From a virus (taxonomy: Duplodnaviria > Caudoviricetes), in IMG/VR virus record IMGVR_UViG_3300032038_000001, positions 160,001 through 224,000 of that record: 64,000 nucleotides of DNA, one strand, 5' to 3'. The notes below the pieces were generated by a model that saw only the letters and a list, made by a program, of their open reading frames with translations, made no database searches and was not told the DNA's origin. Below, one piece after another: positions 11,116 through 14,433 of this stretch (the stretch's first letter is position 1; each line of letters starts with the position of its first letter). The translations under genes were made by a program, and so were the position numbers.

Positions 11116-11513
11116 TTAAAATCCGTTTATATTATTGAAAAAGCTCAGGTCTATAGAACCATCTGTATCATCGTCCATCTGTTCAATTATTTCTCCAGGT
11201 GTATTATTATAAACCGTGTTTTGAATTTCACCAGCTTTTACTAGTTTATATGTATCTTTCTGTGCTTTAATAGCAGCTTCTTTCATTAACTGTTCCCATT
11301 GTTTCTGTTGTTCTATTTGTTGCTCTTGTTTTTTTACCGACTCTATCAACCTAGGATCAACTAATGATGGATCGATTTCAGAAGCATGTTTCAATCCTTT
11401 ATTCTGTTCATCTTCGTTTAATTTACCTTTAATAATTCCAAATACAGGGAGATTATTACCATGATAGTAAACATAAAGGCACATTAGATAGCTCATTACA
11501 GAGTCATCATGAA
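11116..11513 (-). CDS. terL: terminase large subunit, exon 2
   Basis: splicing gives ..KIEAGPG-F-HDDSVMSYLMCLY, restoring the RNase H-like nuclease HDD motif in frame; spliced product 709 aa. Confidence 0.9.
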
Positions 11514-12701
11514 CAATATAGACTATATCATCATCTTCATATTCTATTATCAAATATGAAGAGCTCCCCATTTCGTTTTAATAGAATTACATATGGCTAA
11601 TATCACCATAAAACTAACCTATAAATAGGCACTACTCTACTCACTTCTTTACTTAAGTATTTCTCTTAAGCTATGCTTTCGATAGTCGTTGAACCTTGCT
11701 CTTAATAAGAGCCTTGGCTGCGGATTGTCTCTATTCTTAACCTTTTTACTATACCTAAGGAATTACCCTTCGCCACTAATATAAATATTAGTTTAGTAGT
11801 TAAGACCTAACGAGAGTTCCCCGCAATTAAAGGAGTTTATCCCGGTCCTCATGATGACTGTTTTTAATTTTTGATTTTATATATTTAACTCGTCCCCTAT
11901 TAAGTTCGGTATATTCCCAACCCATTTTTATCACCGTCTCTTTAACAGAATGATTTTTTAATAATCTTTCAATTTTTTTTATTTCTTCATATGATAAAAT
12001 GGAACTGAATTTTCTAATCTTTGGGAAATTGTAATTTTTACTAATAGATTTCCAGGTATCTCCACGCCTTATGTGTAATATAAAATCATACCCATATCCA
12101 TATTTAGCTTGGATTTTTTTAGGTGACATACCGGATTCTAAAAGTTCACATACTTTTTTAACATCTTGCTTTGTATGTGTAGATAAATTACATGTTTCAG
12201 AACCAACTATATTTGGACTTTTTAAACCATTTTTATATGCCCTAGAATTATTTTCTGAATAGGTACACCATTCTAAATTGTCTAATTTATAATTCATTTT
12301 ATTTCCATCCAGATGATCTATCACAGAATAATTGTGAGGATTTTCAATAAATGCGTTAGCAACTAGTCGGTGTATGGTTTTAGTTTTATATTTACCTTTT
12401 TTACCTAGTTGTATATTGATAGCCGGATATTGTAAACTTCTGGAGGATGGATTCATGTTAATCTTAAGTTTTTTATTAGTCTTAATATTATATACATTTC
12501 CATCCTGTGTTATCATATAATTCGTATCTTTATCATTTATAGTTATTATTTTACCAATGACACCATTTTCGAGTAATATTAATGATGAATAAAAACACGA
12601 ATCATAATTTCTGATAATATAAATATATGACATTAAATCAACTCCTATTAAATAATTATTGACTTGTTGTGCATGTATTTATCCAGATTACATTTTTTTT
12701 G
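11514..12701 (-). mobile_element. self-splicing group I intron (IA2-like) in terL, 1188 nt
   Basis: P AATTGCGGGGA (11828-11818), Q AATCCGCAGC (11726-11717), R TTCAACGACTATC (11693-11681), S GATATAGTC (11529-11521), P3 CTCCTT/GGGGAG; exon 1 ends in U (12702), intron ends in G (11514); IGS at 11859-11841. Confidence 0.93.
11827..12633 (-). CDS. intron-encoded HNH homing endonuclease (NUMOD4/I-HmuI-like)
   Basis: YMITQDGNVYN, IHRLVANAF, IDHLDGNKMNYKLDNLEWCTYSEN; own RBS and late promoter 12657-12668. Confidence 0.9.
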   Translation of the reverse strand: MSYIYIIRNYDSCFYSSLILLENGVIGKIITINDKDTNYMITQDGNVYNIKTNKKLKINMNPSSRSLQYPAINIQLGKKGKYKTKTIHRLVANAFIENPHNYSVIDHLDGNKMNYKLDNLEWCTYSENNSRAYKNGLKSPNIVGSETCNLSTHTKQDVKKVCELLESGMSPKKIQAKYGYGYDFILHIRRGDTWKSISKNYNFPKIRKFSSILSYEEIKKIERLLKNHSVKETVIKMGWEYTELNRGRVKYIKSKIKNSHHEDRDKLL

Positions 12702-14433
12702 AACCGGGTCCGGCTTCAATTTTACCAGATGATGTCCTTATCAATCTCGATATATCTCTTGTTATGTTTTGAGTAATAAATTTTTCTTTATATTCTTGAA
12801 CATGTCTTACTAGAATAGCCATCATATCTTCACGAGATTTGGTACCTGTATAAACTCCATAATATGATTTCATTGATGCTTGTTTTTTAAGCATGGATTC
12901 AATAGTACCAGATGCTATCGCATTATCTTCAACTAAATCTTTAGCTCTATCATAATAAAGATTTGCACGTATTCTACTATTAAGAAGATGGTCTATAATA
13001 GAATCACCAACACTATTTCTTTCGATACATAATACTGCTCTAGGTAAAATACTTATTAGTTCTATAAGCAATGCCTCAAATTTTGTTTCACCAATATATG
13101 AACATTCAAATTCAGCTTCTACTTCTAACGTATATGGATTTAATATTGTAATAGCATTATTATCTCCGTTAGTTCCCGTTGAACAGTCAACGCCGATAAG
13201 ATAAGCTGTGCGTGGATTGAGTTTTTTGTATATATCAAATCTATAATATTCAAGTAACCACATTTCATCTATTGGTTTATGAGCAATCTCAATAAGATAT
13301 TGAATATCTTCTTGATTAAATGGAGAAAGTGATGAACCGTGTAATCTTTGAAGTAGTATTTCACGTCTTACTGTCAAGGGATCTCCAATTTTAGCAGATA
13401 TATTTTTTAACCAATCTTCAGTTAGTCCTATTTGATAATACTGATATTCTATATAAAGAATCTTGTTACAATCTTTACCTTGTGAATCTATGTATTCCTG
13501 TATTTCTTCTTCGGTCATATCATAAAGACGTTCGGTCCATTTAGCAGTCTTATCTAAAATCTCCTGTGCCTCTTGACCAGCGGGTGAATCAAGATCTCCA
13601 GGTGTGCTAGTAAATATACGAGCATACATAGCACCATTCGCTTTAGCTCTAGCTGCTGCAGTTTCATATGTGGATACTGAGTTTGCTACTATAGTTTTTA
13701 TATGAGGTGTAAACTCAGCCTCATCGAAATGCTGTATTGGCGATGTAAGACCTCTAGCTAATGATAATGCTGTATCATATGATGTTGCTTTAGCTTTAGT
13801 GATAATAGTATTACCATTTATAGGATGTCCCATTTTTGTAGCATTATTAGTTGCTTTTGTAACCTTGCCATCATCATCAGTAAATGATTCAAATCTTAAA
13901 TATTCAGGTAAAAATCTTATTTGGTCACCAGTTCTCTTAAGATTTGTTTTACTATCTTCACCTGATTTATTTATGTATATAAATTGAGATTGTGAAGTAC
14001 CAAATGAGTACATCCATGTTTCCATAGCAATTGCTGACTGCGTTTTACCTTGTTGACGTGTTAAATTTAACCACGAGTCTAAACCATGTAAAATACACCA
14101 TGCCTGTGCAATATTACCTCTATTTGCCTTATATGGCACAGCAGTACCACCTGGATCAGGAATTCTGGATATTTCACGAAGATAATACCAAGGATTTCTC
14201 ATACATTCTGTCATAATTCTAGTTATTTGATCTTGCGTTAAATTAGTATGACCATCAGGTCCAACAGAGAACGGGTTAATATTTACCAAACTATAATCAT
14301 ATATCTCAAGCATAAAATAGCAATTTTTGATTCCAACTGTTTGTAAATCTTTTGCAACCTGCAAAAATGACCTATTCTGTGTTCCTAAGTCATATAACTT
14401 ATCATCTATTCTTGCAATACGAGATTTAGCCAT
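12702..14433 (-). CDS. terL: terminase large subunit, exon 1
   Basis: Walker A TRQQGKT, Walker B QHFDEAEF, coupling motif FTSTPG, nuclease IGVDCSTG and CIERNSVG. Confidence 0.92.

Follow-up and report, generated by a model that had tools for sequence, protein, structure and literature searches.

The large terminase gene (terL) of an uncultured jumbo phage is broken by a stretch that resembles a group I intron, in which only seven nucleotides lie between the 3′ strand of P7 and the predicted 3′ splice site. This raises the question of whether such an RNA, apparently lacking both P2 and P9, is a genuine intron of unusual design, or whether the splice site was misplaced or splicing was lost. The window, by which we mean the whole 64,000-nt stretch of DNA that was analysed, comes from a source virus record rated 100% complete. 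In the sequences below, a slash marks a splice junction, and the prefix L denotes individual contigs.

The terminase reading frame and the intron boundaries

The 581-aa ORF at 14433..12688 (minus strand) was found by tblastn to be a jumbo-phage large terminase with 26-34% identity, and the alignments ended at residue 577/578. At its 3′ end exon 1 reads ...GGA CCC GGT T, and the unspliced frame continues from there to a stop at 12688. Downstream, a non-coding stretch of approximately 255 nt was present between the HNH ORF and the ORF containing HDDSVMSYLMCLYVYY. No tblastn match to cultured phages was obtained with the exon 2 protein at E 1e-5. The coordinates of the exons and of the intron parts are given in Table 1.

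The last nucleotides of exon 1 are ...CCCGGUU at 12702, and exon 2 starts with UUCAUGAUGAC at 11513. After G11514, the sequence UU CAU GAU GAC supplies (F)HDD and encodes (F)HDDSVMSYLM, placing the insertion at GPG/F/HDD of the terminase. The cultured homologs BpSp and SA1 have the motif G-x-I-x-H-x-x-G-x-(H/N)DD, in which a single residue separates G from (H/N)DD. For comparison of the splice sites, the window terminase was set against ten IMG/VR relatives, and two of them are intron-less at this position: L011, whose terminase is 79% identical, reads GGT TTC CAT GAC GAT (GPGFHDD), and L013 reads GGT TTT CAT GAT GAC (IGFHDD). In addition, the guide 5′-AGUCAUCAUGAG/GACCGGG (11859-11841) can pair without interruption to CCCGGUU/UUCAUGAUGACU, the sequence of the joined exons; both nucleotides that flank the junction form G.U pairs. 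Thus, the predicted 3′ splice site is fixed by three independent lines, namely the cultured homologs, the intron-less alleles and the guide complementarity.

A second stretch complementary to the guide (GUUCACGAGAUGA; 9-10 bp) was observed approximately 97 nt into exon 2 of L014 and L100. It could serve as a cryptic in-frame 3′ splice site whose use would delete the HDD motif, or it may be due to chance.

Table 1. Positions of the terL exons and of the predicted intron parts in the window
Feature	Position	Strand	Basis
terL exon 1 (large terminase)	12702..14433	-	tblastn to jumbo-phage terminases
P1 5′ strand CCCGGUU, last 7 nt of exon 1	12702..12708	-	pairs with GACCGGG 11847-11841
Group I intron, 1188 nt	11514..12701	-	Rfam RF00028; boundaries from intron-less alleles and P1/P10 pairing
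HNH homing-endonuclease ORF, 268 aa, in P1 loop	11827..12633	-	Pfam HNH_3
Internal guide: P10 strand AGUCAUCAUGAG (11859-11848) and P1 strand GACCGGG (11847-11841)	11841..11859	-	complement of ligated exons
J1/3 AUAAA	11836..11840	-	direct reading of sequence
P3 5′ strand CUCCUU	11830..11835	-	pairs with GGGGAG 11569-11564; Rfam alignment
P4-P5 domain	11718..11826	-	P4 11826-11820 with 11724-11718; P5 11815-11812 with 11731-11728
P6/P6a hairpin	11693..11717	-	Rfam alignment
P7 5′ strand GACUAU, in R element GUUCAACGACUA	11682..11687	-	pairs with AUAGUC 11526-11521
P7.1/P7.2 region, several hairpins and conserved GAGUAG	11570..11681	-	ortholog covariation by eye
P8 hairpin: UCUUCAUAUU, 9-nt loop, AAUAUGAAGA	11534..11562	-	Rfam alignment
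S element GAUAUAGUC; P7 3′ strand AUAGUC 11526-11521	11521..11529	-	Rfam alignment, high posterior probability
3′ tail UAUAUUG, 7 nt	11514..11520	-	direct reading
terL exon 2, begins (F)HDDSVMSYLMCLYVYY...	11116..11513	-	HDD/NDD motif of BpSp and SA1 terminases; IMG/VR homologs
P10 3′ strand UUCAUGAUGACU, first 12 nt of exon 2	11502..11513	-	pairs with 11859-11848

A group I core lacking P2 and P9

The intron was missed when the whole window was searched with Rfam, both at the gathering threshold and at E 0.01; it was detected only when a short stretch was searched. On 11501-11912, RF00028 scored 46.1 bits (E 3.8e-10), below the gathering cut-off of 50. The alignment covered P3, P4, P5, P6 and P8 as well as the P, Q, R and S elements, with the P3/P7 pseudoknot present and an exact R element at 11694-11683. 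P1 is formed by 7 bp with the final U of exon 1 paired to G (the canonical U.G), the intron ends in G11514, and P10 is formed by 12 bp; P1 and P10 are directly adjacent on one 19-nt guide. P1 is closed by an 855-nt loop bearing the HNH gene, whose HNH_3 match (29.2 bits, E 7.3e-7) is above the Pfam cut-off of 24.8. The P5 extension is a three-way junction carrying GGCGAAGGGUAAUUCCUUAGGUAUAGUAA.

The additional P7.1 and P7.2 hairpins of subgroup IA2 were present, and the extended IA2 3′ domain (P9, P9.1 and P9.2) was absent, as were the P9 hairpin and P9.0 expected from RF00028. The P7 3′ strand is followed by UAUAUU (11520-11515) and the terminal G (11514), which form neither P9 nor P9.0, and the tail region folded no better than shuffled sequence (z 0.0). 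A P9 imposed by the Rfam model was rejected as spurious, since it sits in the exon (11512-11503) and consists of UCAUG/AUGA without a loop. P2 is likewise absent, because J1/3 runs straight into P3, which Rfam places there and which co-varies. The sequence-only reading had also pointed to a long P7.1/P7.2 region. Its length was borne out, with approximately 112 nt and several hairpins between P7 and the 3′ strand of P3, and siblings have similar regions, so that it is not unusual for the family. This region folded no better than shuffled sequence (z -1.4).

The same design is found in same-site orthologs

Introns at the same site were found in six further uncultured jumbo-phage contigs, L010, L012 (=L129), L014 (=L035), L041, L042 and L100. 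In the three hosts measured, L010, L012 and L014, the terminase was 99%, 77% and 60% identical to that of the window, respectively. The tail from AUAGUC to the terminal G, 7 nt in the window, was 7, 9, 8, 13, 14 and 7 nt in the six contigs in the order given. The ortholog tails are A/U-rich and differ in sequence, and no conserved or shared pairing was found in the tails of the seven same-site introns. The equivalent of J1/3 was 4-7 nt long in all of them. These findings uphold the earlier claims that both P9 and P2 are missing, and the spacing between the S element and the terminal G that the sequence-only reading had suggested looking for among jumbo-phage introns does recur at this site. 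A minimal P9.0, in which an A-U pair of the tail would close a small loop, was considered and rejected, as it is not conserved; in L100, where the tail is UACACAG, the terminal G is not preceded by a U.

Pairing in the orthologs was assessed in a six-sequence alignment. The proportion of pair cells that were paired was 90.1%, compared to 39-45% when the partners were slid, 13 pairs had changed on both sides, and the observed covariation score was reached by none of 500 shuffles. In P3, 100% of the cells paired and two pairs had changed on both sides; two pairs had also changed on both sides in P6/P6a, and covariation was seen in the P5, P5a and P5b helices. P4 and P7 were invariant across the alignment, and these two helices are therefore assigned by homology to the Rfam model. 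The S element and the P7 3′ strand were likewise invariant in all orthologs, and P8 was present in every ortholog with a different sequence in each. Four P1 sequences were found, each fitting its own exon (CCCGGUU with GACCGGG, GUGGUU with GACCAC, GUACGU with GCGUAC, and GCUGGGU with GCUCAGC). P10 was 9-12 bp, and one of its pairs alternated between A-U and G-C across the orthologs, tracking a silent switch of an exon codon from CAU to CAC. Since P1, P10 and core pairing are kept by compensatory changes across the orthologs, the RNA appears to be under selection to splice. Taken together, these comparisons argue that the P9-less, P2-less architecture is an inherited, working natural variant recurring in related uncultured phages.

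Homologous HNH ORFs occupy the same P1 loop in L014 and L042, and no ORF was present in L010, L012 or L100. Comparison of L010:5738-5775 with window 12701-11860 revealed the same intron without the HNH gene, having a P1 loop of 36 nt; L010 matches the window on both flanks of the insertion of approximately 820 nt, which is a clean endonuclease presence/absence pair. It was also observed that the last codons of the HNH ORF (..SHHEDRDKLL-stop) cross the guide, J1/3 and P3 (11827-11859, minus strand), with the stop formed by the conserved UAA of J3/4. The L014 ORF ends in the same manner (..HREDHVKPL-stop), and that of L042 stops at a UGA within the guide. With the end of the ORF overlapping these elements, ribosomes translating the endonuclease would compete with the folding of P1, P10 and P3.

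P9-less introns in the wider family

The best core match among cultured phages was the DnaB intron of the Bacillus jumbo phage vB_BspM_Internexus (MW749003.1), with 61% of the query aligned at 70% identity (blastn). The Internexus introns have P3, J3/4, P4, R and S nearly identical to those of the window intron. They differ at the 3′ end: in the DnaB intron the S element is followed by a P9 formed by UCUCUAUG-GAAA-CAUAGAG, and a GNRA-capped P9 of 7 bp, with P9.1 and P9.2 after it, was present in each of the 19 Internexus introns checked. A GNRA-capped P9 was also found in sibling introns at two other sites in the terminase genes of the IMG/VR relatives. The close relatives thus agree with the earlier view that the window architecture is non-canonical.

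At least 16 of approximately 56 distinct module-bearing introns, at about six insertion sites, lacked P9. This census is approximate and rests on a manual count, because the automatic splice-site caller, which took an open reading frame together with P1 and P10 as its cues, gave noisy results, including wrong downstream sites for L014 and L100; each additional P9-less intron was backed by guide complementarity, by an intron-less allele, or by both. The P9-less introns of L030 and L057 cut the Walker A motif of the terminase (RQ/QGKT), intron B of L013 and the intron of L120 cut at TP/GDLD, and those of L047 and L048 cut an RNA polymerase beta′-like gene just before NADFDGD. Further P9-less introns were found in L063, L097, L101 and L124. 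All four combinations of P2 and P9 exist; examples are L030 and L013 intron B with P2 only, L055 with P9 only, and L094 with both. RF00028 scores were 38-51 bits for P9-less introns and 64-82 bits for most P9-bearing siblings. P9-less introns being common, which the sequence-only reading had named as an outcome that would speak against an exceptional architecture, was found to hold among uncultured jumbo-phage introns and not in curated models.

A pattern scan located the P5 module GGCRANGGGUAAYNCCNNAGRUAURGUAA (window 11732-11811) in over 111 IMG/VR stretches; the module is common among introns of uncultured jumbo phages and missing from simpler siblings. The idea that this three-way junction compensates for the loss of P9 fitted the first nine introns, before the IMG/VR pattern scan, and was rejected when the module was found in P9-bearing and P9-less introns alike.

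Several other arrangements were seen in the family. At L013:5093-5680, the terminase gene contains two tandem group I introns separated by an 8-nt mini-exon (GUACGCCU), the first intron with P9 and the second without; the mini-exon restores ..IFTCTPGDLD.., as in the single-intron allele of L014. At L030:560-910 (=L057), the 5′ exon apparently ends in C paired with G and not in the canonical U.G; the guide CCUUGUU/GCCG complements CGGC/AACAAGG, and this intron has a P2 with a GCAA loop and no P9. L055 (IMGVR_UViG_3300045988_176405), L101, L048 and L135 carry 3-5 family introns with a spacing of approximately 375-625 nt within about 1-2 kb, and single genes are consequently cut into many very short exons. 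In the same genome as the window, an RNA polymerase beta′-like gene (..LLINRNPTL/..) at C1:143396-146457 (L006, minus strand) has two family introns, one with a 57-codon ORF in P6 and a GGGA-capped P9, and the other with a long HNH-like ORF downstream of the S element, much as in T4 sunY.

Relation to known group I introns

The window intron shares the P, Q, R and S core with the IA2 introns of phages (T4 td, nrdB and sunY; Twort orf142; the DNA polymerase introns of SPO1 and phage K), and its P3-P7 half was 73-77% identical to phage K-like, SPO1-like and crAss-like phages (blastn). Both also have several hairpins in the P7.1/P7.2 region, carry a homing-endonuclease gene, HNH or of another type, in a loop, and interrupt a gene that the phage cannot do without. 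The T4 td, nrdB, sunY, Twort, SPO1 and phage K introns have P9, usually together with P9.0, P9.1 and P9.2, whereas the window intron ends 7 nt after P7. Moreover, its endonuclease gene lies in the P1 loop, and not in the P6a, P8 or P9 region as in the IA2 phage introns.

Group I introns, many of them with HNH genes in their loops, are described in terL of Bastillevirinae phages (PMC11878797), and the authors of that study also state that phage introns fit existing subgroup models poorly. These introns are likewise in large-terminase genes, a likeness that concerns the host gene. A term search of that study and of papers on gut jumbo-phage introns did not find a P9-less, P2-less architecture. 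In the searchable literature, a scope that stops short of older subscription papers, the only natural P9-less case found was the Prasinoderma coloniale rnl intron Pa.rnl.1, a mitochondrial, trans-spliced group IB intron that was modelled without P9 and that its authors called 'very unusual', suspecting a missing third piece or accessory factors (PMC3873408). Pa.rnl.1 is in trans-spliced pieces, whereas the window intron is a single piece of conserved design. A review notes that P2 can be absent and counts P9 within the catalytic P3-P9 domain (PMC3984707). Circular-RNA designs retain only P9.0 and the terminal G (PMC11417360), and that paper cites earlier work in which removal of P9.0 or of P10 alone was tolerated and removal of both was not.

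In the minimal ribozymes derived from Tetrahymena and sunY, the 3′ domain can largely be removed if other pairings hold the 3′ splice site. Such deletion ribozymes, in which P9 is not strictly needed for in vitro catalysis, are laboratory constructs, whereas the window architecture appears natural and inherited. The terminal G is positioned by P9.0 and P10 rather than by P9, which mainly provides the L9-P5 tertiary clamp. The premise of the sequence-only reading, that P9 helps to position the terminal G, finds no support in that form.

How the intron may work

We consider that this locus most likely contains a genuine group I intron of the phage type (IA2-like) that has a reduced periphery and is spliced in vivo, with a probability of roughly 70%. 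From the conservation and the P1/P10 covariation, we infer that it is self-splicing and guanosine-initiated. In the proposed mechanism, the 19-nt guide would pair with both exon ends, forming the 7-bp P1 and the 12-bp P10 side by side, so that, once the first step is complete, a single continuous helix would hold both the 5′ exon and the 3′ splice site. The terminal G would be tethered 6-13 nt from P7 (6 nt in the window), next to the P7 binding pocket. The guide helix and the short tether would then jointly select the 3′ splice site, a role usually shared by P9.0 and P10, and the L9-P5 and L2 tertiary clamps would be dispensed with. A chaperone or another externally supplied factor could still take part.

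The sequence-only reading had proposed that an unusually long P10 substitutes for P9. P10 is indeed long, and compensatory changes have preserved it; its role as the substitute was not established. P10 was 8-11 bp in P9-bearing siblings with clear splice sites and 7-12 bp in P9-less introns, with only approximately 4 bp in L013 intron B, which speaks against a specific replacement. Because the P10 of P9-bearing siblings is equally long, a long P10 is better seen as a family trait that may permit the loss of P9. A bolder generalization can be offered only tentatively, namely that introns of a large jumbo-phage family, most of it unannotated, can freely do without the P2 and P9 modules, that the members without P9 and P2 are minimal natural ribozymes able to carry out both steps of splicing unaided by protein in physiological conditions, and that docking of the terminal G, otherwise a task of P9.0 and P9, is taken over entirely by the tether and a P10 of at least 7 bp.

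Without the L2 and L9 tetraloop clamps, the fold may be unstable unless helped. An alternative is that the intron is real and not autonomous, and that a protein makes up for the missing P2 and P9, be it the intron's HNH enzyme acting as a maturase, a different phage protein or an RNA chaperone of the host. The clamps normally found at the periphery are both absent, many HNH genes are present in these genomes, and protein dependence is frequent among natural group I introns whose periphery is weak. We nevertheless regard this explanation as unlikely: the only domain matched was HNH_3, with no maturase-type domain found, and the ORF-less introns of L010, L012 and L100 keep the same P9-less, P2-less core and tail, so that the intron's own HNH protein, which had been put forward earlier as a possible cofactor, is not an obligatory partner.

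That the intron has decayed and lost splicing, leaving a terminase made as two polypeptides or non-functional, is very improbable. The Rfam score under the cut-off would fit this, as would the stop codon of exon 1 and the ATG at 11571, which lies inside the intron core and opens a frame into exon 2. However, this ATG is ACG in L012, L014, L042 and L100, and no ribosome-binding site was found upstream of it. As the gene is interrupted immediately upstream of the conserved HDD motif and the ATG lacks conservation, exon 2 would not be made alone, and splicing would therefore be needed for the terminase. Furthermore, compensatory changes maintain the pairing of P1, P10, P3, P5 and P6 across the orthologs, and the design persists across hosts with terminases 60-99% identical where measured. 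Finally, a true 3′ splice site further downstream with a P9 in between, to which the placement of P9 by the Rfam model and the second guide-complementary stretch of L014 and L100 might point, has a negligible chance of being correct and is ruled out by the intron-less alleles, in which (F)HDDSVMSYLM right after G11514 is continuous with exon 1. The Rfam 'P9' has no loop, and use of a downstream site would delete the HDD motif.

Meaning for jumbo-phage introns and genes

A genuine intron with a stripped-down periphery, in a conserved and recurrent single-piece P9-less design, would show what nature can strip from a group I ribozyme. The ORF-less orthologs of approximately 365-380 nt provide a test system for the positioning of the terminal G, and they could be of use for engineering compact ribozymes or circular RNAs. 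As P9-less introns score 38-51 bits against a cut-off of 50, standard annotation misses most of them, and essential phage genes therefore look like broken fragments in metagenomic annotation.
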